A DNA stretch of 35,796 nucleotides. Origin: Rotaria sordida. Lineage: Eukaryota. A program made the translations under genes and the position numbers. Below, piece after piece: positions 3,618-33,147 of the stretch (positions are counted from its first letter, which is position 1; the number at the start of each line of letters is the position of its first letter). Under the pieces are notes generated by a model, which had not been told where the DNA came from, did not search any database, and was given only the letters and a program-made list of their open reading frames with translations. Location of the stretch: assembly GCA_905250005.1 (NCBI GenBank), contig CAJNOH010000132.1, positions 192,940-228,735 on the forward strand, written 5' to 3'.

Positions 3618-5458
3618 AGATCCAGAAAGATTTATGTATGTAAAATGTTCATCTGGTCCTAACGTGACTAATTCTGGTCCAAAAATAATTCTTGAATTTT
3701 TCGCTTTGTAATCATATATTTGTACGACTTGATTTTGTGGTACTCGATATGTAATCAATTTGGATTTGTCACGTTTTGTCATTTGTACCGACGACGTTAC
3801 TGTTGTTTTGGCTTGTCTTCCACTTAAAGAATCTCGTTGAAGGAGTTCTTCTATACTTACTGGTAATTCTTTTTCCCAGAGTTCTTCATCTTGTGTTAAC
3901 ATGTATGTATTACCAATGATCGCACGAACACGACCAGTTTTCAAGTCACGAACATAGATACCTTCATTTTCATCTAGAAAAGTACCTAATGGATAGATAA
4001 AATATGCAAGATTAATTAATTTACCCAAAGGTATCGCTTTTCGTTTTTCTAATACTTCGACTTGTACTGGTGGTATATATTCTCTTGGTCCTCTTACTAC
4101 CCATTTATCGCCTTAAAAAAATTCACACATTAAAGACAGATTGAATTCTTTTCTCTTACCCGGCACACGAGTCACATTGTATATTTCATCATTAAACGAT
4201 TCGATACATTTCACTACGATGCCTTCATCGTCACTCAAGATGTATATATCTTGAATTCCTTTCTCTAATTGTTCATTAGGTTGCAGAAAAAAAGATTTAT
4301 CACCAACAACTAATTTCTTCTTGCCCAATTGATTTTTACCGTCAGCTTGAAAAGAAAATCGAAATTATAATAACCCTCGATCATAGTTTGACATCTAACA
4401 TTCTTACATGAAACTGGATTTAAGATGACACAATATTGTCTTGAATTCAATGTTTTTATATCAATAATTGCCACAAGTTGTTCATAAACATTCAAAATAT
4501 ATGTTTCAGTTTGTTCTTTTGTGACGAGCCATTCATCACCATTATTTCTTGTTTGACCAAAATCATCTTTGAATGTTTTCAATGCACGTAAATGTAAAGC
4601 TTTTTTATCTGTTACAACATGGGCATTCTCAATACCAACAACTGTTTCATAAGCCAATGGTACATAAGCACCCAACTGTTTTATTAACCAATTTTCACCT
4701 GCCACACGACGTTGACCCAAACGATCGATAAGTTCTTTTTTAGCACTCAATCTTATTGCTTGATTTGGACCGATCACGGTAGCAACAATATGTTCCTCAA
4801 CCGATACTTCTTTACGTGGTATATAAGTGCCTAACAAATCAAGATATTTGTACAGTTGACAGACATATATTATGTTTCGAGCGAATTAATTGCATGAATT
4901 ATAGCTGTGAACACATACACAGTCACTTACCTGGTCCTTCGAATAGCCATTCATCTCCAGCTTTTCTCTGTTCTCCATTATCATCAAAATCCAAAACACC
5001 CTTTAATCTTAATGCTGAATTAGCTGCAACATATTTTAAAAGTGTGGCAGTCTGAAACAAGACGAACATATACTGTTCAAAGGTACTTTCTATAATAGTA
5101 TTCACAATACTTGTTTTAAAACTTCACCAGGATACAATGGAAATGGTTCTTTATAATCTTTTTCTAATCTAACATCTAGGCTACCGTACGACAATTTTGC
5201 CTGACCATTTTTGTCGAATTGTGTTTGATCATCTTCATTTTTCACAACAGGATTTTCAATAACACAATAGTGTCTTGGTGGTAGAGTAATCATTTTATCA
5301 GGTCCAAAAACTATTGTCTCATGGTCTTGTCTAAAAAATGTTTTTGGACCGATTTCCAACCGCGTCACACTTGTATTCCGATCTAATACATGAATATAAT
5401 AATAAGGCGGAATACGATAGACAGGATCCATCTGAGCTGGTAAACTCTTAGAAGACAT
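3618..5458 (-). CDS. MVP: Major vault protein (MVP) homolog, N-terminal ~507 aa in 6 exons: 5458-5111, 5051-4931, 4830-4408, 4345-4160, 4111-4025, 3973-3618. The 3' part of the gene was not found in the expected place.
   Basis: The translated exons align residue-by-residue to the MVP repeat domains: [146 protein letters not shown]. All junctions have GT donors (GTATTG, GTAAGT, GTAAGA, GTAAGA, GTAAAT, GTATGT) and AG acceptors with consistent phases. The last exon ends in a GTATGT donor at 3617 with no stop codon. Confidence 0.85.
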
Positions 5459-6705
5459 ACTATTGTCGGGTTTTAATACTAGAATAGAACCAAAAAAAGA
5501 ACAACTAACACTGAATACTTCATTTCAATGTATGCATTCTTACGAGAATAATACGACTTGGGTGTGGATCTTCTTTTCATCCACTCCAACATTCATACCT
5601 CATACTACAGCCCATCAGGTTCAGGTCCGAAAAATTTTAATTAATCGGGCCCTGGTCCGAAAATTCTTGAACTCGATAGGCTCTACTTCACACCCTCGGT
5701 GCATGCACTCATTGAGCTCATGTAAATAACAATGGTGGCTCTTCAGTGTCAGGAAAAGCAGAAAAAGGGAATAAAACAAGTGCTAAACAAAAAAAAAATC
5801 GACGAAAACATGGATATAGGTACATTCTGAGAAGCATTTGAACGGTCTGGCATAGCTGTCGTTGATGGATGGCGATGACATTTCTGTGTGTCGGACGAAA
5901 TCAGCAAAAATTTGTGTACTCTGATGAATGAAGTACGACCACTAGACTCAATCGCCACATTTCTGCTGTCAAAGACTACCCGTTTTCCTCAATGTTTCAG
6001 TCAGACATTTACGGGTCCGACCAGTGGAATCATTGGTCTGGGCGCAGAAGCGGTATCATGGTTTTGATTTTTACTTTTTTGATCATCGAAAAGCTGGAGT
6101 AATAACGAAAGATGATCATCTTTGTTATGCCTTATGACAGTGTTCGATAGAGATTGGTTGACTATATGAATAATTATTGATGAAAAAAAAACACGGTGAT
6201 CTTAACAACAACAAGAAAAACTAACAATTCTCTTTCATCAATGCTTACCATACGAAGAAAAGTGAAAGTGTAATGTGTGCTACTTTGTTTCATGATCGTC
6301 TCTCTTTATAGTTTTTTACTATGAATCATGTCTCACATCTTGCGCACCATGCTCAACAGTGTTATGAAATAACAGAGAAGGAAAAAAAATGATTGACCCA
6401 TTTACTTCAACCAATAATTCAAACGAAATAAAAGGTGGCGTAATCTAAGTATTGAAACAATAGATCAAAGTAAGAATCCAAGTCGATGCGTACAACTATT
6501 GTACTCGTAGAGACAGTTATATATTGCGTCACAACATGAACGTTATTGTACTACGTAATGTAGTTCATAGGCACTATGAACCAAAGAGAATTCATCGGTT
6601 TCTCGATAATAATGTGTTGTGCCGCTGAACTCATATCTACATTAGGTGTACCTCTTGAAATTAAATTTAACTCAAACCTATAGACATGCAACTTACCGAT
6701 CATCA

Positions 6706-6822
6706 GGGTGTGGGTGTAGGTGTGGGTGTGGGTGTGGGTGTGGGGTGGGTGTGGGTGTGGGTGTGGGAGAGGCTGCGACCCGGCCAGCCCCCCGCCCCAA
6801 CCCACACCCACACCCACACCCT
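6706..6822. repeat. GT-rich/AC-rich hairpin element, copy A: (GGGTGT)x10 + 30-nt GC-rich spacer + (CACACC)x3. Strong G-quadruplex motif on the plus strand.
   Basis: Read directly: ggtgtgggtgtaggtgtgggtgtgggtgtgggtgtggggtgggtgtgggtgtgggtgtggga...cccacacccacacccacaccc. The arms are reverse-complementary. Confidence 0.8.
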
Positions 6823-6832
6823 TACCTCGTAG

Positions 6833-7601
6833 GTCAGTTATCTTTTGCAAATGGCGAACATATTTGGCCGTTGCCATACTATCATTGGCTACATTTTGTC
6901 TAACACTTGCATCAGTCGACCGATGTTTACTAACATCAAGCTCAAGAAAATGGCGTAGATTAAGTCACATTTCAATTGCTCGCTACATTATAGTTCTAAG
7001 TGTTATTTTCTGGCTACTTTGTTTGTGTCATATAGTCGTTTATTATGATTTACAATTAATAGATGTGAATAATAATATATACATATGTATGCCTAAATCT
7101 GGTATTTATACAATGTTTATTGGTACATTTTTGCTTGGTTGTAATACAATTTTGTTCTATACACCCATGTTTGCTGCTAGTGTCATTACTCTCATACATG
7201 TATGTATGTCGCGACATCGTGTACGAAATTTTAGAAGTCGAAGAGCTAGATTAAATAGAGCTGATCGTCATCTAATTACGATTATGTTCATTCAAGTTGG
7301 TATAGGCATGATATTGAGCTTATTTCGTACTACTTTCTTAACATATAGTTTACTGTCGAGAGATGTATCGAAAAACATTTACAGAATGACAATTGAATCA
7401 TTTTTGGATCGACTTTCATTGATTATATTTTATTTGAATTTTGCTAAATCATTTCCTGTCAATGCTCTGACAAGTCCACTTTTCTTTGATATCTTTCGTG
7501 AACGTTTGATCAATATATGGAAACATTTCAAAAGAGGTATATCTTGTAAATTTGAAATTAAATACCGTTCAATATCTTTGAATGTAGTTTCATTAGTATA
7601 G
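6833..7601 (+). CDS. Rhodopsin-type 7TM receptor-like, 3'-terminal exon encoding TM3-TM7 and the C-tail; upstream exon(s) for TM1-2 not located
   Basis: Hydrophobic segments have GPCR spacing. TM3 ends in a DRC motif (LASVDRCLL, a DRY variant). TM4 has the conserved W (VIFWLLC) and TM5 the conserved P (FYTPMF). ICL3 is basic (RHRVRNFRSRRARLNR). TM7 reads FPVNALTSPLFF, a degenerate NPxxY. The AG acceptor at 6831-6832 is preceded by the polypyrimidine C-rich arm of repeat copy A. Stop at 7599-7601. Confidence 0.4.
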
Positions 7602-9180
7602 TTTTACGAATTCAAAACTAAGAATATTTTATTTTTAAAACCTTTTGTTAGTCGATATTATTGATAATGATTTTTTGTTTTTGATTTTATTATTAAGATC
7701 AGCAAAATTCCATAATTCGCAGTGGTCGATTACGTCAAGATGCATTTGACTTGCTCGTCTACAATCATTAATACTATCCATAATTATCTTGATCGGAGAT
7801 CAATATTAATCTTTTAACGTGATGTAAATATAATTGTAAATATAAATATCGTTTGTTTCAATATTGTATTGTATTAATCTCTTTAATAGATATTTTTCCT
7901 TTGAATAGATTGAAAAAGACGAATTTCACTAAATCTCTTAAAATTTTATTCTCATATCTAGAATTTAAGAAAAAAAAACAAACAATTCTAAGTAATTTTT
8001 TCTGATTAGATTGATTTACTATAGTTTCCTACATAGTCTTGTTGAAATTGAAAATTGATTGAATAAAAATAAAGATTTCTTCATGGACATACTCAACCAA
8101 AATGAAACACGAAATAAGAATTGAGCTACTCAATAGTTTATATTTTGGCAACAAGTTTTTCAAGTAAAACATGGTCATATTCAATAAAATGGCGCCGTAC
8201 GGCTGAATGAAATATATTCGGTTTAAAATGATTAATGTTCTTTGAAGAACAAATGAATCTTCCTGTAATACTAAATAAGAACTTTAATGCTTTCATAGCC
8301 AACAGTACAAATATGTACTACTTTTTTTTTTGGTCAGAGAACTATAATGAATTAGGAAAAAATAATTCTGGTAGAAAGAACGACAATAGTACATAGATGG
8401 GATTAATTTCTAGCTATTCTACAGAAAACTTAATTGATTATTAAAATCACTATCTGAATTTAAGCTAGTCGCTTGACATTATAGAAAAAAAACCAAAAAA
8501 TACATTGTTGTTAAACTTTTTTCCACCCTACCTCATGGACATATATACAATATTAATATAGCAGATACAACTTCAACTAGGATAATAATGACGAAAAATG
8601 TGCAAAGAAATTGAAAAATAACTAGATTACACATCATTCATTCTCATTTTTTTATATAGTGAACTAATAAAAGTAGTTTTGTACGGGTGCAGGCGTGGGC
8701 ATGAGCAGCACAAGGCAAATTTTTCAGACGAAGTAACTGTACATATTACTTTGTTGATACAGTGCTCAGGTTCATATGAGTAATGAAGTTAAACTTAAAT
8801 GTATATTCTACTATGTATTATTATCAACAAAGAGGACTCAGACGAGTCGAGCGAGTTACATCAAAATGGGTCAATTCGTCAACATCTTTGACCTACATTA
8901 TATAACATACTCAACTAACCAAACCGACATCTATGTTTTTACATTCACTCGGTCAGGTCTTTATAATCACGCATACGCACACCTTCAGCATCTCAGATCC
9001 TCACATAAAACATGCTTTACCTGGTAGAATTGAATGCTCTTATCACATCTACTCATATTTTCTTTTCTTTTTGCTATATCGTTTGGCCATAAAAAAACGA
9101 ACAACAAGTGTGTTATAATATTTCTTTTTTTGTCGTTCGATGCAGATATCAACAAAAAAAATGATCATATTTTAGATAAA

Positions 9181-14394: not shown

Positions 14395-14545
14395 ACATCA
14401 GGTCGGAAAAACCTATAGTATACGATTCAATGCATCTACATTTCCTCTCTCTCTCTCCAATAATGAAAACTTCAGCTCTTTATCTTGTTTCTATCAAAAG
14501 TTATTGAAAAAATTCCCACTCGCTTTGTTTGCTTTGGAAATGAGC
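14395..14545. repeat. Dispersed repeat, copy 1; the homologous copy is at 27035-27185
   Basis: Shared blocks: atacgattcaatgcatctacatttcc vs atatccgattcaatgcatcatcatcttc, and atcaaaagttattgaaaaaattcccactcgctttgtttgctttggaaatgag vs ataacaagttattgaaaaaatactcacgttttttgttttttttcgaaatgaaaaa. Confidence 0.55.
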
Positions 14546-19785: not shown

Positions 19786-21240
19786 GGGTTGTATTTAATT
19801 GTTCAGTATTTTATTATGAATGTTCAGTAAAAAAATATTATTTGTTCAGTAAATAATTCAAGAAGTTCAGTAAACAATTCAAAAAGTCCAGTAATTAATT
19901 TTAAAATAGGCACCTATTTAAATGCTAAGTGAAAAAATATAAATGCTAAGTAAAAAACTCTATTTTTTCTAAGGAATTTATTTAATATAAATCTAAGTAA
20001 AAAAAAGATTTTTGCTAAGTAATTTATTTAAATTCTCAATGAAAAAGTCCTGTTTTTTAGATAAAATATTAGGAATTGACAAATATATCATTTTTGCTAA
20101 GTAGAAATAAAATTTTTGTTTAGTAAAAATGTAGAAATTTCTAAGTAAAAAATTTAATTGAACAGTTAATCGATTAGCAAAGCTTTCGTTGCTTTTCGTG
20201 GTCGTCCTCGTTTTCTTTTTCCACCCAAAGGTACATCCTTGGCTATAGAAGGTGGTTTGCAATGTTTTAATCTAATTGCCATCCCAATCACATATTGACA
20301 AATGTATTCCTTCAAAAAGTTTGGACAATTACAAAATCCATTTTTCCATTCGGATCCAATGTTTCGTAAAGTCAATTTTTATATTCCAAATTGAACAACC
20401 TTAAATTGTGTAAACGAAGTCCATCTTTTTCTTTCGTATCTTTGAATTTCATCTTTTGACATATTTTCTACATCACTAGCCGGTACATAGTAATCGGTAA
20501 AACCGTTTGTTTTCGATGGTAATTGTAATACTAATTTTGAGGATTTTGCAAAATGATATGCACTGGCCCATTTTTGAAGTGTCATTGTTGGTTCTGCGGG
20601 AGATACAACTGGACTTGTTTGATTTTGATTGCGAGACATACACCATTTATTTACAATGTCACTTGGAACCATAAGAAATCTTGATAATATATGTCGTTCT
20701 CTAAAAGTATGTTCGTCTTTGATGACTTTGTTCGTGGCTTCTAACTGGTTATTAGTACTTGATGTGAACACATTATATTCTTCATACTACAAATCAAGAA
20801 TAGTTAACCATTCATGACATCATAACGATAGAAAATTCAGATGAAATTAACATATGTTATGTTGTCAAGCCAGCACTGATAGAATCAAAGAGAGAGAGAA
20901 AATGTACGAATCACATCACCGGTTGGCTATCGTTATTTTATCATAATCACGTTTACCTTAACAATATTTTTTTTTCATTCATACAATTTATTTTCTAACT
21001 TACAATTCTAATTTATCAACTTAATAATTAAATATTTTACTTGTATATTAATTATTTAACTTAACAAAAATTTTAATCATAGAGAAATATTAATTTCACT
21101 AAGCACCTAATAAATTCATTAAGCATCTAATTTATTTACTGAACATCTATAAATTTTACTTAGCAAAAGTCAACTTAGCATTTATATATTTCTACTTAGC
21201 TCTTAAATAGGTGCTATTAAATTAGGTAAAGCAGTTGTTT
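19786..21240. mobile_element. Foldback-type DNA-transposon-like element. The inverted arms at 19786-20165 and 20985-21240 are built from tandem 9-13 bp subrepeats (TTCAGTAAA, GCTAAGTAAAAA) and flank a degenerate SWIM-finger ORF.
   Basis: The left arm aaataggcacctatttaaatgctaagtgaaaaaatataaatgctaagt matches the reverse complement of the right arm aatagcacctatttaagagctaagtagaaatatataaatgctaagt. GTTCAGTAA and GCTAAGTA(A)n units are repeated at least 6 times in each arm, in inverted orientation. Confidence 0.55.
20166..20771 (-). pseudogene. MULE/FAR1-type SWIM zinc-finger ORF fragment, ~200 aa, interrupted by one in-frame stop at 20379-20381, with a basic AT-hook-like C-terminal tail
   Basis: ORFs 20771-20382 and 20375-20166 share one frame and are separated only by a TAA. 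The motif WKNGFCNCPNFLKEYICQYVIGMAIRL fits SWIM CxCx(n)CxH with His replaced by Tyr. The tail is GGKRKRGRPRKATKAL, with a GRP core. Confidence 0.4.
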
Positions 21241-21680: not shown

Positions 21681-24600
21681 ATACCGTTATCAGATTGAAA
21701 TAAAATCATTGAACAAGTATTACAACTGACAAATATGTCAACGAATATTTATAAATATGTAGCTTCAAATATAAGGTTATTGGTTCAGGACAAGTAAGTC
21801 TAAAGATACGTATATATGATTTTATATCTTTAACATTCTACTTTTCAGTTCTTAATATTATCTTTTCAAAGTTTGGAGAGTATCTTGGTCTGTCCTTTCT
21901 AGGAACTCGAGCAAAAATCTTTTATTTATTATTAGAAAGTTTTCATTTTCTCAAAAATTTCACCAGAATACTTAGAATACTCGTCGTATTCTGCGTTATC
22001 AGCGATAGAAATGTACCAAGAACAGAGTAGGACTCAGATGGGCTCTGTTTTTAGAAGCTGTCAGGAAATATTATGACAATATTAAAAATTCTAACCAAAG
22101 GCGACAATGAATTGTTTCTAAAATCTATGTCGCCAACACTATGGCTTCCAACGCATTTACCTACATTATTAATGCATATTGAGCAATTTTCCTCTGTGTT
22201 CTGTTCTCATCTATCGATAAATAATAGTCATGCAATGCAGAAGCAATTAGATCAAGAAAGATTTGTGTTACTGTTGTTGATGTTATCGCTGTTGATCATA
22301 GTGCAACAACATATAGAACGCGCACGTAAGCGAGAGAGAGAAAACACAGTTTTGTGCATGTTACCAAACTCTTTCTTTTACTTTTTTTATTCCTTCACTT
22401 CAAGTGCTTTTCATCGGAGAGTGTAGCTGCCATTGAATGTAAGCTTTAATCTATTCTGTTCAATATATGGTTGTATATTTGAAAGAATTTTTCACGTCCT
22501 GTAAGAGCAAAGCTTCTAATAAACATTTATCTAAGCTGATTGAAATGAATTTGACTTGTACAGTGATTAAATTTCTTCTAGAAATCCTCATAGAAGAATT
22601 GAAACCATTTTTTTGTTATTATTACAACTTCTATACACTACATAAATTACATATCGTGAAAAAGAATTTTTTTACGGTGAATGCATCGTATAATCATGCT
22701 ATTCTGAAAAGAAAACCGTTTGAAACATATTGATCTTTTAAATTCTTAAAAGAGTAGATCAAGACCGTAAATAAAGTTTATCTTCAAGCTCTTGAGTTAT
22801 GCTCAAGAGAATATAATTCGAAGACTGCAAGGATGGCTGTAGGACCAATAGTCAATTCACTTGGCATTGTTTGTCAAAGACAAATTTTTGCAATTCCCTG
22901 TCTTTTTTATGTGCCTTGAGTTTCAATCAATCTGGTACTAAAATATTTGCAATAAAACAAGGCTGTCGGATTCAGTCATCATCTACTTATCCTTCTTACT
23001 GAAGCCTTCTCAGTTTGAAAGAATAGGTATTTAGAAAGTGTTCAGATCGAACATTCTGATTATCTAAAACAACGTCGTATACTGTCTAAAATGATGAAGA
23101 AACGGCATGATTGATGCCCTAAACGATGTAAAACGATCGCCATTTTTCATCGTTTTCAGCCAGTTCGTATTACGAGCCAGTTTTTTTTTGTCGTTTATGA
23201 CTCAATTTATCTACTCCGATGTAGTTTTGCTTTTCACTTTGCACATGTTTTCTAATATTATGAAACGTTTTATCACATAGATAGGATGCACACATATACA
23301 TGAATATGACGAAGTGTACCCAAAGTATGCGCGTAAAAATAAATACACACACAGAAAAAAAGAATTATATAGGTGAGAGTAGAACAAATAATGATTTCGA
23401 AATAAATGAGTTTCCTATTATAAGATACACTGATTTCAAGAATGACATATTTTAGAATAAGAGAAGTATCATTGTTATTTTTCACGGTTCTCAATCTTTT
23501 ACGAGCTGTATTTTTCGATGTGAGGGGGCAGATCAAAAGCTGGTACTTGAATGAACTTCTCACTGGGTATCCAGCATACAAAAGAATTAATTCCATCATA
23601 TATGGTACTTGGCTAATAAGAAAAATGACGGATAATGAGTGGTCAAAAATGTGCACTTTTTCTCGATGATTGTTGTTCATCGTGTATCATGACAAAGAGA
23701 CTGTTTTTACTAGAATGTGGTCTAGTTAGTAATGGTAGATAATATCATCAAGCTTTATCGATTGCATATCGTTGGAAAGTGTTTACTGATGATTTTAAGA
23801 CATTTTTTGAAACGATGAAAAACTGTGGGAAAATAACAATAAATGGCAATTATAACGATAATTGTTTCTGCTGGCACGTAAATGATCACCATAAAGGATA
23901 TCACTTATCGCCATATTTCTCCATTTTTACGGCAGATTGTAAACGATCATCATAATGAGAGTCTTTTTCAAGTCATTTACGGATCGTTCTGTACGACATG
24001 GGTGGAGATTGGAGATCTGATTTCGACTCTGAAATCGCTGCCGATAATTTTTTTTTTCGATTTGTCACAGCTTCATTCTTCATATTAATAAATAAAAAAA
24101 AATCAATACATGTCGTATAGATTAATAATGAAGTGTTGAACAGAAACATGAGTGAATCACCTTTCAGTTATAAAACTCAAATGATTCAGTGAGATGAAAA
24201 CGTAATAATATTAATAAAAAAAAATGATGTTAATGTCATTCAAAATACTACAACTGTATTCATCAACAATTCTTCGGTATTTAGACAAAGAACATCCAAA
24301 GCAGGTAAAATCTGTAACAAAAATGGATTTTTAGTAGTAAAAAATTATCGATTTTTTTACACTAATAACAAATAATATGAGTTTATTGATCATTTTATTT
24401 AAGTTTATTTAAAAACTTATGAATATTTTGAACTGATCTTGAGTCCATTATCAACACAAAATGACAAATAAAAAATATAAAAATTTTTATGTATAACTAT
24501 ACTTTTCTTTAACTCATTCAATACCTCATACCATTTACGAAATGATATACAGAACGTAAAAGAAATATTTAGCATTCTGTCGTCGTCTTAAACGACGAAT

Positions 24601-25664
24601 ATTTTACGATGTGCTTCGAGAAAAATCGTTCTCTGTGACTATCAATAATAACGCTGGATTGCAAATGCATCAGATTGTGACGACAGAACGCAAGAGAAAG
24701 ATTCACGCATTTTCCTTTGTGTGCATGCAGAATGTAAGAGAATGTCAGTATTGAAAGGGTTAATATTGCAATGCACAAGCACACGTTTCTTTTCATTGTA
24801 TTACAAAGTTAAATAAAAGAAGAAAAATACAAACAAAAGAAAAAAATAGTTATACATAAAAATTTTTGCACTTTTTGCTTGTCGTACATGCAAAAAGATA
24901 TTCGTTTTGAAAAAAAAGCGAGTTTGAAAAGGATAACATTCATAAACTCGTTTTTTTAGCGAAAAAAACTGAAATTTTTAGTGTAAATAGCGCGCAGTTT
25001 TAGGTATTAAATAAGGTTTCCTCGATTGACAATGTGTAATCTTTTAATAGCATTGTTAAAACATTTTGTAATTTCTCGGAGTTGAAATTGAAATCTTAAA
25101 AAATAATATCTCAGAGTCGGAATCGGGATCATGAGAAAGAAATTTTTCGGAGTCAAAAAAAAAAGTTGACTTCACACGTCTCCAGTAGAAATGCAGTAAT
25201 ACCGATTCTGACCAAGTTTGATTCCAGTTTTAGAGCTGGATTGGTCGTACTTAAGTGTTCTTGAAACTAAACTTGATTTGGGATCAGAACTGAAGCCCAC
25301 CAATTTCGGTTGGCATCGAATGAAATGCGTCAGGACTGAATTTCTAGACAAAGTTCAAAAAACGAGTGTAAGTTGATGAAAAGAGAAACGTCTCATATGC
25401 CTATATCTAAGGTAACGGACAAAATGTATTAGTGCCCTTGTGTATAAGTCAAATGATCTGAACTATTATCTATTTCAAAATAGAAGAATCGTGAGCAGTT
25501 TTTTGAAGAATTTTTAATAGAAATGATATAGTGAACTGCAATTTTTACTATTGGATGAAAAGATAACAATGCGTCGAATCGTATATTACATAATTTTTCT
25601 GGTAAGTTTTCTTAGGGTTTCCAATATAGTTTTTTTGTTTTTTTTGGAAACCAATATATTACCC

Positions 25665-26770
25665 CTAGAGATGGCACTTTCATCTTCTCTCTAAAAGGAA
25701 AAAGAAGTAAAGAGTGAGTTGAAAGATTTTCTTTTTTGTTTTTCGTGTTATGCAAGAGTGAGCCGCATTTCCTTTGCTGTTATATAAAGAGAAAAGTAAA
25801 AGGAAAGTAAAAACAGGAAAGCGAAAGAAAGTAAGAAGAAAATGAGAGAAAATAAAGAGAATGGATTAAAAAAAACGAAATAAGCCAAAAAGAGAGTAAA
25901 ATAAAGGTCAAAGAAAACAAAAAAAAAAGTGAGAGTCAGGCCTGCACGGTGCACGCTCATAAGCGCTTATATGAGCGTGAATATTTATCCTGTTTCGAAT
26001 ACGTGAGTGAAGTTACAATTACTCATCAGTTACATTATCAACTCATTAGCAACGAAAACTTTGCAAGTTTGTCAAAAGAAAGGTAGTTTTCTAAAAGTAA
26101 CAATTTTTTTTATAATGTTTGACCAAAAACAATGAGGCCGAGGAATCCAAATCTCTAGTCGATTTCTCAAAATTTTGAGTTTGATTCTTTTTTTACTAAC
26201 AAAAGCTTTTTTTAATTAGAAAAAAATCATTTTCTTCACAATAAAAATTTTTCTAGTATAAAAATAAATTTTTGTTGCTAAAAAACTTCTTTTTTTTATC
26301 TAGTGAAAAAATCAAACTCAAAATTTCTAGAAATCAATTACAGATTCAGATTTCTCGGTCTCTATTGTTTTTGGTCAAACTTTAAAAAAAAACCGTTGTT
26401 TTTAGGAAACTGCCTTTTCTTTTATGAACTCACAATGCTTCCATTACTAATTAATTGGTAACATGACTGACGAGTAACTATAACTTCCCTCTCCTATTTA
26501 AGACAGAATAAACGTTCACGCTTACATAAGCACTTATGAGCGTGAGCTGTACAGCTCTGACTTTCATTTTCTTTTTTGTCCCCTTTGACCTTTATTTTAC
26601 TTGCTTTTTGCTTATTTCGTTTTTTAATCTTTCCTCATTTCTTTCTTTCGCTTTCCTTTTTTTTACTTTCCTTTTACTTTTCTCTTTATCGAACAGCATG
26701 GGAAATGCGATTCACTCTTTCATAACACGAAAAATAAAAAAGTAAAAGTGACATCTCTAACTGCCCCCAG
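25665..26770. repeat. ~1.1 kb near-perfect palindrome (long inverted repeat/foldback) centred near 26245. The outer arms (25665-25990 and 26505-26770) and the inner segments (26121 with 26350, 26161 with 26330) are all mutually reverse-complementary.
   Basis: The reverse complement of 26701-26749 (cttttactttttttatttttcgtgttatgaaagagtgaatcgcatttcc) matches 25715-25772. gtgcacgctcataagcgcttatatgagcgtgaatattta matches the reverse complement of aacgttcacgcttacataagcacttatgagcgtgagctgtac. gaccaaaaacaatgaggccgagg matches the reverse complement of ctcggtctctattgtttttggtc. tagagatggcac (25668) matches the reverse complement of gtgacatctcta (26750). Confidence 0.85.
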
Positions 26771-27034
26771 TCATCATAACGAATTTTTGATTTTGAAGAG
26801 CGCATTAGAACCGCTGATCGAAGATCTGAAAAACTGTGCAAATTCTAGGTATATTACTTTAATCGTTCAAGAGTTATCGACATTTACTTTAAGCTTCGAA
26901 CCGTTCTTTCGAGAAAATTAGATGGAATTTTGACTTTTTTTCTGTATTTTCATGAAAATTTGCTTTGCCAATTCATCCAAATTCTCAATCGTTTTTGAAG
27001 AAACTCAAGAGAACTGAAAAAAAAAACTAGAGAA

Positions 27035-27185
27035 AAGTCTGTAATATCCGATTCAATGCATCATCATCTTCACTTTTCAATAGGGAAAATTCGCATCATT
27101 CTATCGTGTTCCTATAACAAGTTATTGAAAAAATACTCACGTTTTTTTGTTTTTTTTTCGAAATGAAAAACAGTCATGCTATGTG
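27035..27185. repeat. Dispersed repeat, copy 2; the homologous copy is at 14395-14545. It lies immediately downstream of the palindrome.
   Basis: See the copy 1 evidence. Confidence 0.55.
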
Positions 27186-27319
27186 ATCACGTGTGGCTGC
27201 TATCATATTCCTTGAGATCCGGTTCTGAACGTCCAAAAAATATGACGATACGTTATATTACTAGAAGCATGTAGAAATAACGTATGAGTCATGCAGCTAT
27301 CACATAGCATATTCAGGCT

Positions 27320-27398
27320 GAGTGAAAGTTGGTGTTGGATAATGTGAGTGGATGGGTGTGAATGAAGATAGGCTTTTCATCAACACCCTCACACATAC
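27320..27398. repeat. GT/AC hairpin element, copy E
   Basis: gagtgaaagttggtgttggataatgtgagtggatgggtgtgaatgaagatagg ... cttttcatcaacaccctcacacatac. GGGTGT pairs with ACACCC and ATGAAGA with TTTTCAT. The 5' arm shares the block gtgaaagttggNggtgtt with copy F. Confidence 0.6.
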
Positions 27399-27893
27399 AA
27401 GATATGTTTATCTATTTGGTCTTTAAGGAAAATATGATTAACATGGGATGAGTTTCGTTTACGAGTAGAACAGTTTCATCATGTTTAACATTCTAATCTT
27501 CCAGAGACTATACTGAAAGATTTTTCAACAATAATAAAAAGGGAGCTATTTTTATTGTGAAAAATCTGGAAAAAAGAAGATGTTATAACTCCGCAAGATC
27601 GATTTATTTTGATCGAGAATCTAAAATATATGGAAAATTCCTTCAAGTCTACAACCATCAGCGGACTGATACCTATAATAAAATTGTAACCTAGATAAAA
27701 TTTATCATTTTGGAAATTTACAAGCATATACAATATTATTGTTGAGAAGCAACTGAGTAGTTATGACGAACAATTTGAAGAAGACACCACGTCCATCGGA
27801 AGCAAAGCCCAAAGTAATACAAGTCTTAGCTAGATTTATATATTCTATTCTTTCATTTTCTGTAACTTTCTTGAGAATGACTCAAAAACAAAG

Positions 27894-30800
27894 ATGACAA
27901 CTGTTGACGATGATAATTTCGAAGAAGCACCAACTTGGGCTGCCGTCATTACTATACTCAGCTTTGCTTTACATACTCCAATCGGGTGGTTTCGTGATTT
28001 TCTTCGTTATATTGGCTTGGAAGAGAAAAAAACTGTTATAGATCCAAGTCCAAAGGTTCCAAAATACCTTATAGAAAGTTAATTATTAATGTTTTATTTT
28101 ATAGGATTTTGTACCACTTTATCAAAGTTTCGAGTGCTTCTATACGCGTAATTTCTATACACGTGTTCGTGATGCATTCAATCAACCGATTGCAAGCATA
28201 GCTGGGCCTATAATCGATGTTATGGAACGTGTTTCAGATGATTACAATTGGACATTCAGGTGAGTTTAAATGAGAAAGTCAACAACGAAAAAGAAATAAA
28301 CAAACTCATATGTTAATTTTCATTGATATAGATTTACTGGCAGAAAAATACCAGCCATTAATATGGGTTCATACAATTATTTAGGTTTTGCTGAAAATAG
28401 AGGTCCATGTGCAGAACAAGCTATAAGATCAATTGAACAGTATGGAACTACAACAGGTAGTACTCGTCAGGAATTAGGTATGTTATTCTTTTTATAAATT
28501 GAATCAATATCAATTTATGTATTCATTTTTATATTCATAGGAACTCAACAGTATATGAAAACTCTTGAAGAAATGATGGCCAATTTTCTAGGTGTTGAAG
28601 ATTGTATTGCTTTTGGTATGGGCTTTGCTACAAATGCATTGAATATTCCAGCAATAATGGGCGAAGTATAAAACTATCATCTTGTTTTTGTTTTTTTCAT
28701 CAAAAAAATGTTTTGTCATAGGGTGATCTTATACTAAGTGACAAACTTAATCATGTTTCAATTATTCTTGGTGCTCGATTATCTGGCGCACATATTCGCA
28801 CATTCAATCATAATAGTATGTATCTATATTTAAATTGACCAATTTTGATTCAAATTGATCTTTAAAGAAAAAAATATTTCTCATTTTTCTTCATTATATC
28901 AATGACTTTTAGACATGAAAAATTCTCAATTTGAAATCTAAATACGCATATTAAACTTAGGCAAATAAAAAAAAATATTTTTACCTTGAAAATAAAGTGT
29001 GATTTTTACTCGTCTTATGAATAAAATTCTATTGTTAGTATTTAAGTTTTGTAGTTTGAGTATGAATATGAGTGTAGGTGAAAGTTGGAGGTGTTAGGTA
29101 TTGGTTTGGGTGAAGACAAGACTCACACTCGTACCCAACATGGTTTCAAGTTATGCCTATGTCGCTGCATTTCTGATTTCTATCAGTTTATATCAAGAAA
29201 AATCGAATGTGTAAATGTTGAACTCAAAATTTGTTCAACGAAAGTGTTCTTTCAAGTTTATAAAGATTTCAAAAAACTAGGGTTTCTGAATTCTTTCTAA
29301 AATATATGTGTCTGTTGAGTATTTAATATCTTGAAAACGAAACATTCGTTTCGACGAAAAATTTTCGTGTATATTAGTTAAAAATATATACATATCTTTG
29401 CGATAAAAATAAATACAAAAAAAAAGTCGCTATACATTTCAAGAATGATTAGTAGTTAGATTATGCAAAAATTCAGAATTCTAAAGTCGAGAAAAATTCA
29501 TAATAGTGTAATCAAAAAATTATGCTGCCATTGTTTTCGAATGTATTACATTATGAATAAGAAAATCCTCTGTAGGCATGTTTCAAGAATCGAATGATTT
29601 ATTGGTTGCATATTCCACGATAACGCAATCCGAAATCTTCAAAACCTATAGATAAAAAACTGGAAACTCTGTAGTCCAACCAAACATAATTCTATAGTAA
29701 ATATAAATAATATGCAGTAAGATAAGAAAATCAAAAAGTTTTTTTTTCAATGATAAACTGTGAAACTAATATTTCAGTCTACTTATGCGAGTAGTATTTA
29801 AGTATATGTATTAAGCTATTGTTTTTAATATCATTATTTTCATTTGATGTATCACAATATAAATCTAGCTTGATAGATAACTATATATAGTAACTCGAGA
29901 TGGTACTAAACTAAGTGCTTTTGGTACTGATCTCAATAACACTTTTTTCCACCGGAATTATGTTCTAACTGATATAATTTAGAAGATAATTCACTTAAAA
30001 TCATAGAATATTAAACTATTATTTTGAGTTGCGATTGAGAAATTTTGTTTTTGTGACTTCGATCATGATCTAGTCTCATTGATTGAAATCGATACTAAAA
30101 TTTGATTTCACACATCTCTAATACTAATACTATAATCACGACCAGATGAATATATATTAACATCACAACCATATCATTAATACATATACTTTGATAACAA
30201 TCGTACGGATGGATCGATATATCAGTTTTTCAGGTTACTATTAAAATAAATTTATTAATTCTATTTTTTCGTTGCATATTATTCATATTAGGTTTCTTAA
30301 AAAAATAAAATCATGTGTTCTCTTATCATACATAATTCTATAGTGTCGAGATCCATTGTAGCATTATGACTTTACTATTATATTCTGAGTGAAGGAGAGA
30401 TTCATGTTTCTTGCTATGTAATTCAACACTCGTTACCAATCGTGTTTCTCAAAAGATTCGACATTGTGAAATCAATGAAAATAAAAAAAAACCATCGTAA
30501 TACGGAATAGACAGTGGCTTTAAAAACATGTCCGAGACAGACACAATGAAGTTAATTTCGAATTCCAGACCCTAGTCATGCAGTCGAAAAATCTGCAAAA
30601 ATTGGGCATTGTCGGGTACATTCATTAGTACTGAGTCTATTACCAGCCTTTTATTTATTTATCCAATAGTATATTTGAGTAGAGCATGAAAAATTGCATT
30701 TAATCAATATCGTTTCATTTAAATTCAAGAGTTTTCAGTGCAATAAGAATATAGGAAAGAGATATCACACACACTTATCCTGCCTTCATCTTGGTCATAT

Positions 30801-33147
30801 TTTATTTTTATAAATCACTCAATCTTCCTAATAGTTCCTATTCATCCGAATTCAGATAGAACTATTAAAGTAAGACCTAAAGAATGCTTTTCCGAACTTT
30901 TTATGGAGTAGTCTATGTGAGAAGTGAATCGAAAACTTGATGACGGTCGAAAAACTAACTATAGATAAAATTTGCCTCCTGGTTTAGCATTAAATTTCTG
31001 GAATTTGTTATTGTCAAATTTCTGATCAACGTAGCCAGTTTCATACTTCTAGCCGTTTTGTGAAAAGTGAATTTTGAAAAAAAAAATTTTTTCAAAATCC
31101 TGAAGACAAATAGAAGAGTCATATAATTGTTTTTCGTGAAAATATCGTGATCCAACAATATTATTTTTTACAAAGAAAACGACAGTATTGTGAAAGTCTT
31201 CTGTTTTTGAATTTTATATCGTTTTTCCTAATGAAATTTATTGATTCGGTTTTTAGATATGCAAGATTTGGAATATCAATTACGTGAAGCCATTGTTCAT
31301 GGTCAACCAAGAAAATTTCGGCCATGGAAAAAAATTTTGATTATTGTCGAAGGTGTCTACAGGTAGAACAAATAATTTTTTTCTATTTACTTTTGTTATT
31401 ATTGATTATATGGAATTTTAGTATGGAAGGTTCATTATGTAAACTGCCTGAAATAGTTGCCCTAAAGAAAAAATACAAAGCCTATTTGTATGTTGATGAA
31501 GCTCATTCAATTGGTGCTGTTGGTTCACGTGGTCGTGGTGCTGTCGATTATTGGAATGTTGATCCAAAGGATATTGACATACATATGGGTACATTTACGA
31601 AAAGTTTTGGCTCTGTCGGAGGTTATATTGCTGGTAAAAAGGTATGAGATATTTCTTTATATTAAATTGATCGAGTTTGATTTTTGTCATAGTCTTTGGT
31701 CGATCATATTCGAATTCATTCTCATTCTACATGCTACTCATCGAGCATGTCGGCACCTATCGCCTATCAAATCATTAGCGCACTTAATATTATCACGAGT
31801 CGAGATGGAACTGATGGTGGTAAGACATTATATTTCAAGTATTTTAAAGAAAGAAAACTACAAAATGAACTATTTGAGATATTAATGATGAGCTCTTATA
31901 CAATAAGAATTATCTTAACCTTTTCTTTCTTAATGGTTACCTATAGGTACCACTTTTTTTGAAGTTTTGTTCTTTTGAGCTATAAGACATATAGAAACTT
32001 ATTTTATATCAACAATCCGAACATAACATTCTTCATAATACATTTTATTTGCTATTCAGACAAACATACTATGGTATGGCATGTGCTAGAGCCGTGCCAT
32101 AAGAGAGTATTAACGCATAATTGATCTAACAAATTGGTATTGAACTTCTTCTTTATTTTCCAAATGATTATCAATATGATATATTTATGAACTAGTTAGA
32201 AAAAAAACAAAAATACTTGAAAAGAAACACGAACGCGAGATGAAAATATCTGAACAATATCCAAAGAAGAGAATGTTTCGAAACTAAGTAAAGGTAAAGG
32301 AGAGGATACATATATGCGTGTCGTACTTGTGGGTGTAGGTGTGGGTGTAGATGGAGTGAAAAACGACACTGAACACTCCAAACACAGTGACATCAATATT
32401 CCATACTCACACTGACACTCACACATACAGCTTGTGTCCATTTTGTTGTAACTTTCACAAGTATTTCTATACAATAAAATTTATTGAACATTTAACACAT
32501 TAACTATATTAACACTTAACTGATGTGATTCAAACTTTTCATGTGTATATTATAGACCATTATGATCACAATGCTAAACGAATTTCAGTTCTAGACCTTA
32601 AAATTTAGCCATGAAAATGAAAAGATTAAATGTATTTGATACTATTTTTAGGTCAAAAACGTATTCGACAATTAGCTCGTAATGTTCATTATTTTCGTCG
32701 TCAACTTGTCGATATGGGCTTTATCGTATATGGACATAGAGATTCGCCGGTTGTTCCAGTGATGCTCTTCATACCGGCTAAGGTTGGGTATGAAATTATA
32801 CTCTTTCTTTTCTTTTTGTTTCGTATGTTCATTGTTTTATTATATAGAGCTGTCAATCGAGAAATGTTGAAACGTGGATGCGCTGTAGTGACTGTAGGTT
32901 TTCCGGCTACTAAGGCTAACGAATCACGTATACGATTTTGTCTATCGGCCAGTCATACTAAAGAAATGCTCGATTATGTAATAGAGAAGATATCTGAAAG
33001 ACATAGTTGAACGATTTTATTTTTCTTTTTTCACAGGTTTTGAGTGTTTTCGATGAAGTGGGTTATCTTACTGGACTTCAATGTTCAAAACGAAATCCAC
33101 AACGTCGTTTAGTTGAACTCAATCCTGAAGACTATCTTGAAGATTAA
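27894..33147 (+). CDS. SPTLC2: Serine palmitoyltransferase catalytic subunit (LCB2/SPTLC2-like), 506 aa, 11 exons: 27894-28055, 28105-28259, 28332-28477, 28541-28665, 28722-28815, 31257-31362, 31422-31641, 31693-31819, 32652-32787, 32848-32986, 33037-33147
   Basis: Exon translations align throughout to SPTLC2: [134 protein letters not shown]...[27 protein letters not shown]. The PLP-lysine motif GTFTKSFG is present. Then [51 protein letters not shown], and the C-terminus [10 protein letters not shown]...LNPEDYLED. Every junction is GT-AG with consistent phase. Intron 5 is 2.4 kb and intron 8 is 0.83 kb; the others are 50-70 bp. Confidence 0.9.
29058..29145. repeat. GT/AC hairpin element, copy F, in SPTLC2 intron 5
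   Basis: gagtgtaggtgaaagttggaggtgttaggtattggtttgggtgaagacaag actcacactcgtacccaacatgg. Confidence 0.5.
32328..32430. repeat. GT/AC hairpin element, copy G, in SPTLC2 intron 8
   Basis: gtgggtgtaggtgtgggtgtagatggagtg aaaaacgacactgaa cactccaaacacagtgac...ccatactcacactgacactcacacatac. Confidence 0.6.

Follow-up and report, generated by a model that had tools for sequence, protein, structure and literature searches.

A fold-back-shaped, probably hAT-type transposon fossil of Rotaria sordida, a bdelloid rotifer, upstream of a serine palmitoyltransferase gene

Transposons of the hAT superfamily end in the consensus 5'-YARNG; the terminus of Ac reads CAGGGATGAAA and that of Tam3 reads TAAAGATGTGAA. 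Typical hAT derivatives carry short terminal inverted repeats of 10-25 bp, with subterminal regions that are unrelated to each other. The predominant size of the hAT target-site duplication is 8 bp, a size that is also produced by P, some MULE, Merlin and a few other superfamilies (PMC5499845). A different architecture is found in the foldback-like transposons, among them Drosophila FB, Galileo/Kepler/Newton and the Muta1-type MULEs, which have very long arms with little or no spacer and arms-only non-autonomous copies with the potential to form cruciforms or hairpins (PMC4168063; PMC5499845). [quoted passage not shown] Galileo, of the P superfamily, generates 7-bp duplications and sometimes 8-bp ones (PMC4168063), MULEs generate duplications of 8-10 bp, and the arms of Muta1-type MULEs are subterminal tandem repeats (PMC5499845). 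A long inverted repeat that can yield dsRNA if transcribed is also a feature of hairpin-RNA (hpRNA) or endo-siRNA loci and of transposon-derived hairpin silencers such as maize Mu killer.

The locus described here belongs to the bdelloid rotifer Rotaria sordida. All positions refer to the window, the whole 35.8-kb stretch of DNA that was analysed, unless another contig is named; L001, L002 and L006 are R. sordida contigs used for comparison. The features of the locus are as follows, with the strand given where a feature has one.

25666-26759: fold-back element, an inverted repeat of 1094 bp in the window with its axis at ~26236
25666-26236: left arm, outer part purine-rich (self versus reverse-complement alignments)
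26237-26759: right arm, outer part pyrimidine-rich (self versus reverse-complement alignments)
26190-26306: AT-rich turn at the centre of the palindrome, with low arm identity and weak pairing
25949-25980: local 32-bp hairpin GTGCACGCTCATAAGCGCTTATATGAGCGTGA in the left arm, a member of direct-repeat family D2 that is itself palindromic
26514-26545: mirror copy of the 32-bp hairpin in the right arm (repeat search)
25666-25680, plus strand: left terminal inverted repeat TAGAGATGGCACTTT, a hAT-type YARNG terminus
26745-26759, minus strand: right terminal inverted repeat AAAGTGACATCTCTA, which reads TAGAGATGTCACTTT on the minus strand (terminus alignments)
25658-25665: left copy of the 8-bp target-site duplication, ATTACCCC, identical to the right copy at 6 of 8 positions
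26760-26767: right copy of the 8-bp target-site duplication, ACTGCCCC (flank alignment to L006)
25935-25942: insertion site GTCAGGCC of an autonomous hAT in the left arm, filled in L002 only

With the non-autonomous hATs (Ac/Ds-like, of the Ac clade, with ZBED-type transposases), the element shares an 8-bp duplication, TAGNGATG termini, the lack of coding capacity and a precise empty site, and its terminus is near that of an autonomous zf-BED/Dimer_Tnp_hAT element of the same species. It differs from them in an inverted repeat that spans essentially the whole element, and in that no family members or matching autonomous partner were found in the loci and databases searched. Its shape is that of the foldback-like transposons; however, it departs from the Galileo and MULE foldbacks in the size of its duplication, 8 bp, in its hAT-like terminus and in having no real tandem arrays by TRF. 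Unlike hpRNA loci and Mu killer, it has arms that are 18% diverged and tolerate large indels, and no target, conservation or strand-specific maintenance of pairing was seen. We consider it probable that the element is a single, old, immobile, fold-back-shaped, non-autonomous class II (cut-and-paste) transposon, most likely of the hAT superfamily. As to the parts of this reading, we are highly confident that a transposon insertion is involved, and the assignment to the hAT superfamily is likely. The element consists of two arms of ~550 bp that reach from its termini nearly to the centre, and it has no coding capacity. As a genomic fossil it is of an ordinary sort.

The window is eukaryotic DNA of ~30% G+C. 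Among its ORFs and exons are those for major vault protein repeats, for a rhodopsin-type receptor, for a ubiquitin-conjugating enzyme and for a cytochrome P450 without introns. The P450 is 90% identical to a protein of Rotaria sp. Silwood-2, and its best matches are to bdelloid rotifers throughout; exact-protein look-ups returned no record for the P450 gene model or for P0136. A multi-exon serine palmitoyltransferase (SPT) gene starts at 27894, placing the palindrome 1.1-2.2 kb upstream of its start codon, and no gene is called at the palindrome in the NCBI annotation. Our rough SPT gene model is 98% identical to the R. sordida protein P0121, which is encoded on the L001 and L002 contigs, both of them 98-99% identical to the window across the region. 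The same assembly as L001 also contains L006, a 5-kb contig with a paralogous SPT gene (P0122, 84% amino-acid identity), whose non-coding flanks align to the window at 70-74%. The orthologous Rotaria sp. Silwood-1 loci (L003-L005) lack the whole stretch that matches window 23342-27474 and are uninformative on the insertion itself.

The inverted-repeat signal was far above chance by BLAST and by repeat search. BLAST of the sequence against its own reverse complement aligned 25716-26757 at 76% identity (bit score 739, E = 0), and the repeat search recovered nested arms of 320 nt (74%), 105 nt (84%) and 62 nt (71%) around a common centre, where 115 nt separate the best-matching arms and the short overlapping palindromes I6 and I7 occur. 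Global alignment of the arms gave 82% identity when gaps are ignored and 70-75% when they are counted; mismatches number 90-96 and gap columns 54-84, and no perfect run exceeds 25 bp. The arms form most of the element, and their pairing stops ~50 nt short of the centre; outwards it reaches the very ends (25666 and 26759) if the 48 bp deleted from the right arm are taken into account. The original prediction of a ~1.1 kb near-perfect palindrome therefore stands in its size, coordinates and self-complementarity, but not in its perfection, given the 82% arm identity without gaps. Likewise, the ~500 bp dsRNA hairpin that it expected from a transcript is matched by a strong predicted fold, a single long hairpin on either strand (-487 and -514 kcal/mol), although the duplex is imperfect.

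No other inverted repeat of comparable size is present in the 35.8-kb window. Within the arms, TRF detected only weak purine-rich repeats of 2-3 copies (score 31-61) and no real subterminal tandem arrays. The two mirror ORFs of the arms belong to no Pfam family and have no homologue among 1.84 billion proteins; the element itself gave no Pfam, Rfam or tRNA match, and Rfam and tRNA scans across the whole window gave nothing. We rejected an arrangement in which two copies of some shorter element are nested or lie head to head, as there are no internal termini of the TAGAGATG type.

The terminal repeats, TAGAGATGGCACTTT and TAGAGATGTCACTTT, are identical at 14 of 15 positions, and both ends of the element fit the hAT consensus 5'-YARNG (TAGAG). 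A target-site duplication, one of the checks proposed with the original prediction, was found: the flanking 8-mers match at only 6 of 8 positions, which taken alone has a chance probability of ~0.01. More telling is the paralogous contig L006, which lacks the element, with window 25246-25633 aligning to L006 1066-1451 and window 26750-26867 to L006 1455-1573. When the flanks were aligned separately, the left flank ended and the right flank began on the same single L006 8-mer, ACTTCTCC, and the empty site reconstructed by removing the element and one 8-mer aligned colinearly to L006 at 73% identity, without a gap where the flanks meet. The single ACTTCTCC and the gapless empty site are the hallmark of a transposon that duplicated 8 bp of target on insertion. 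The overlap of the flanks on the empty site is 8 nt and not 7 bp, as in Galileo, or 9-10 bp, as in FB and MULE elements; a MULE-like 9-bp register, with the sequences inspected by eye, fitted more poorly. The two target-site copies, at 6 of 8 matching positions, appear degraded in line with the age of the element.

The palindrome is also present in the R. sordida assemblies represented by L001 and L002, at 98-99% identity and with SNPs and indels of its own in each, and the three separately assembled genomes have 16 variable sites within the element. Compared with L001 (~8797-8844) and L002, 48 bp are deleted from the right arm of the window allele, at ~26735/26736. The 48 bp kept in L001 and L002 pair with the matching part of the left arm, and the L001 version, 1140 bp long with the 48 bp present and located at 7729-8868 of the L001 locus (CAJOBE010001090.1), pairs from its very termini to the centre.

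L002 differs further in carrying, at positions 4439-7997, a 3559-bp hAT inserted in the left arm of the palindrome, with a perfect GTCAGGCC duplication on either side and the window and L001 representing the empty allele. The ends of this hAT are TAGTGATGGG (also given as TAGTGATGGGACG) and CCCATCACTA, and its called gene contains zf-BED, ZBED1 RNase-like and Dimer_Tnp_hAT domains. It is an intact-looking, segregating and presumably recent insertion. Related copies are L007, from R. sordida (92.5% identity), and L008, from Rotaria sp. Silwood-1 (70% identity, with the terminal inverted repeat TAGTGATGGGCCG and the duplication TGATCCAC / TTGTCCAC), and relatives occur in several other bdelloids, on one to three contigs each. 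These sequences indicate that hATs are present and have recently been active in R. sordida. Recent TE activity in bdelloid populations is also described by Nowell et al. 2021 (PMC7943196), and the segregating, intact autonomous hAT agrees with the DNA-transposon activity reported there.

The left end of the palindrome matches the terminal inverted repeat of the L002 hAT, TAGTGATGGGAC, at 10 of the first 12 bases and shares the motif CATCTTC further in; with the first five bases held fixed, 2 of 5000 shuffles reached the score of the left end. At the right end the terminal motif alone is shared, the extended likeness being confined to the left end, which counts against the hAT assignment. The terminus would put the palindrome among the same kind of hAT as the L002 element. 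Beyond the terminal 12-23 nt, the interior of the element has no similarity to the recovered hATs (L002, L007, L008), and with interiors unrelated we rejected the possibility that the palindrome is a deletion derivative of that family.

Within the arms, the 60 transitions and 30 transversions that distinguish them are symmetric between strands, and G·U-compatible transitions number 28 for a plus-strand RNA against 32 for a minus-strand RNA. Across the three assemblies, SNP density is 14.6/kb in the element, compared with 27.3 and 17.0/kb in the flanks and 6.4/kb in the region of SPT exons 1-5 (27894-28835, short introns included); the density in the element is thus comparable to that of the flanks and well above that of the SPT exon region. 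Both the 48-bp deletion in the right arm and the 3.6-kb hAT insertion in the left arm segregate within the species. Arm divergence therefore looks neutral, and the patterns of SNPs, substitutions and indels suggest no maintenance of pairing. By BLAST, the arms are 76-77% identical, against 70-74% for the flanks shared by the window and L006; the value for the arms resembles the 75-77% seen in non-coding DNA when R. sordida is compared with Silwood-1. Provided that the two arms started out identical, these values are consistent with an insertion that slightly post-dates the divergence of the paralogous loci, in keeping with the absence of the element from L006. The argument that a perfect palindrome must be either recent or maintained does not apply here, as this one is imperfect, old and decaying.

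We propose that a hAT transposase acting in trans would have recognised the TAGAGATG... termini and excised the element, which would then have integrated into a ACTNCCCC-like target ~1.1 kb upstream of the SPT gene, where filling-in of an 8-bp staggered cut would have left the flanking duplication. The fold-back shape could have originated in the inverted duplication of one transposon end, for instance by template switching during gap repair. After insertion, the arms and the target-site copies would have diverged roughly neutrally, to ~18% mismatch plus indels. We infer that the element has no present function.

The evidence for transposition comes from the ends of the element, its flanking 8-bp duplication and the empty site. 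Searches of the window and of ~170 kb of Rotaria loci gave no second copy. Exact-pattern scans of the JGI metagenomes with the terminal inverted repeat plus subterminal motif gave 0 matches; the internal hairpin motif gave 4, which we rejected as chance, motif-only matches in GC-rich contigs (50-63% GC) with no relation to the element. The 70-aa arm ORF had 0 matches among 1.84 billion representative proteins, a library that probably excludes non-coding rotifer ORFs. A multi-copy family is not demonstrated, and these negatives are weak, covering R. sordida at the recovered loci only.

Several other origins for such a structure deserve comparison with a hAT-type insertion. Spurious palindromes can result in short-read assemblies, here from two haplotypes or reads fused head to head. 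The palindrome recurs in three assemblies, each with its own SNPs and indels and one with a transposon inserted in it, and it is therefore not an assembly chimera; moreover, arms that differ by ~18% are unlike a chimera of one sequence. The concern about an assembly artefact that accompanied the original prediction is thereby refuted, and we assign it practically no weight. Break repair can also produce palindromes, and double-strand-break repair is frequent in desiccating bdelloids. A local inverted duplication made by fold-back priming or template switching during such repair, with no transposon involved, would agree with the one copy seen across the window, the ~170 kb of loci, the ORF search and the JGI metagenomes. 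Repair palindromes, however, copy local DNA that was already there, and the empty site has none of the 1.1 kb; together with sharp boundaries with a hAT-type motif at both ends, an 8-bp direct duplication that is single in the empty paralogous site and a terminus resembling the end of a genuine hAT from this genome, this makes such an origin very doubtful. If the insertion was a transposon, it could instead be a fold-back non-autonomous element of another superfamily that gives 8 bp, MULE, P or Galileo-like. MULE duplications of 8-10 bp (PMC5499845) and the occasional 8 bp of Galileo (PMC4168063) would allow this, and the dissimilar interiors, which leave the element with no autonomous partner identified among the recovered hATs, count for it and against our preferred reading. 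We nonetheless regard it as unlikely, since the TAGAGATG terminus fits YARNG and matches the R. sordida hAT terminus at 10 of 12 bases, the 9-bp register fits worse than 8 bp by inspection, and the arms have short, weak, purine-rich TRF repeats but no subterminal tandem arrays like those of Muta1 (PMC5499845).

The remaining explanations concern RNA. In a functional hpRNA or endo-siRNA locus, an imperfect dsRNA of ~500 bp would be diced and the structure maintained for its small RNAs. The long hairpin predicted on both strands (-487 / -514 kcal/mol), with several perfect duplex runs of 15-25 bp, is compatible with such a locus, as is the expansion of RNAi gene families in bdelloids (PMC7943196); inverted-repeat transposon derivatives are, in some published accounts, known sources of siRNAs or miRNAs in other organisms. 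Yet arm identity is no more than 82%, in an alignment that has 54-84 gap columns; G·U-keeping substitutions (28 vs 32) have no strand bias, as expected without selection on an RNA; and alleles with 48 bp deleted from one arm or 3.6 kb inserted in one segregate within the species. The paralogous locus lacks the element, the Silwood-1 locus lacks the corresponding stretch, no target-like similarity exists elsewhere in the window, similarity to the active hAT family ends after ~20 bp, and there is no Rfam match. A maintained hpRNA locus is for these reasons quite improbable. Of the two classes named in the original prediction, the hpRNA reading thus finds no support in the face of neutral-looking arm decay, tolerated indels and the lack of an Rfam match, and the foldback transposon is favoured by the hAT-type terminal repeats, the 8-bp duplication and the precise empty site. 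If transcribed, the element could still give some small RNAs, like many inverted-repeat transposons. That the fossil is in fact still transcribed, for example by read-through upstream of SPT, with its hairpin feeding the expanded bdelloid RNAi machinery and heritably silencing its own hAT family in trans, strikes us as a long shot; if true, such a trans-silencer would be the rotifer counterpart of Mu killer in maize and might be one reason why DNA transposons stay at low copy number in an asexual lineage. Taken as a fold-back-shaped, probably hAT-type insertion, the locus adds one characterised ancient non-autonomous transposon of this kind in a bdelloid, with a clean empty-site comparison. 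For striking palindromes in such genomes, transposon structure is a more economical explanation than hairpin-RNA genes or assembly errors.

The comparison with L006 revealed other differences between the paralogous loci. At L006 1029-1072, a stretch of ~44 bp starts with TAGAGATGTCCC, a sequence that matches the right terminus of the palindrome at 11 of 12 positions. Its start at 1029 is a homology breakpoint, and L006 lacks ~2.2 kb of the window there (23040-25245). The ~2.2-kb stretch is probably ancestral, its start being found also in Silwood-1, and the TAGAGATGTCCC stretch may be what remains of a related hAT-type element next to which DNA was deleted. In the large SPT intron, window 29696-29815 and 30171-30288 both match L006 3243-3371, in opposite orientations, and represent an inverted duplication within the intron; ~1.1 kb of the intron (29073-30171) is missing from L006. 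A second TAGAGATG 10-mer lies in the same gene's intron sequence, at 30109-30120 on the minus strand (TAGAGATGTGTG motif), and was set aside as it has no convincing element boundaries.

Other repeats occur in and around the window. The dispersed repeat that the original prediction placed beside the palindrome was confirmed by BLAST: ~135 bp just downstream of it, at 27032-27166, match 14406-14543 at 75% identity, and two more copies, inverted, lie in L006 (1572-1726 and 1304-1415). Window 19905-21218 comprises ~1.3 kb between 47-nt inverted repeats (19905-19951 and 21173-21218; 87%; ...GCACCTATTTAA...) and encloses a 130-aa ORF on the minus strand (20379-20771) that matches nothing in Pfam; this segment may be a further DNA transposon in decay. 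Two 76-nt inverted repeats, at 599-674 and 935-1010 (83%, ~260 bp apart), form a pair that is MITE-like in size, and the GT/CA dinucleotide microsatellites at 6551-6877 and 32254-32412 give rise to spurious HTHTHT / GVGVGV ORFs. Lastly, the L002 hAT has a palindrome of its own, ~200 bp long with 81% identity, upstream of the transposase start (~5065-5268, element positions 627-829), which is conserved in both R. sordida copies (L007 2070-2280).
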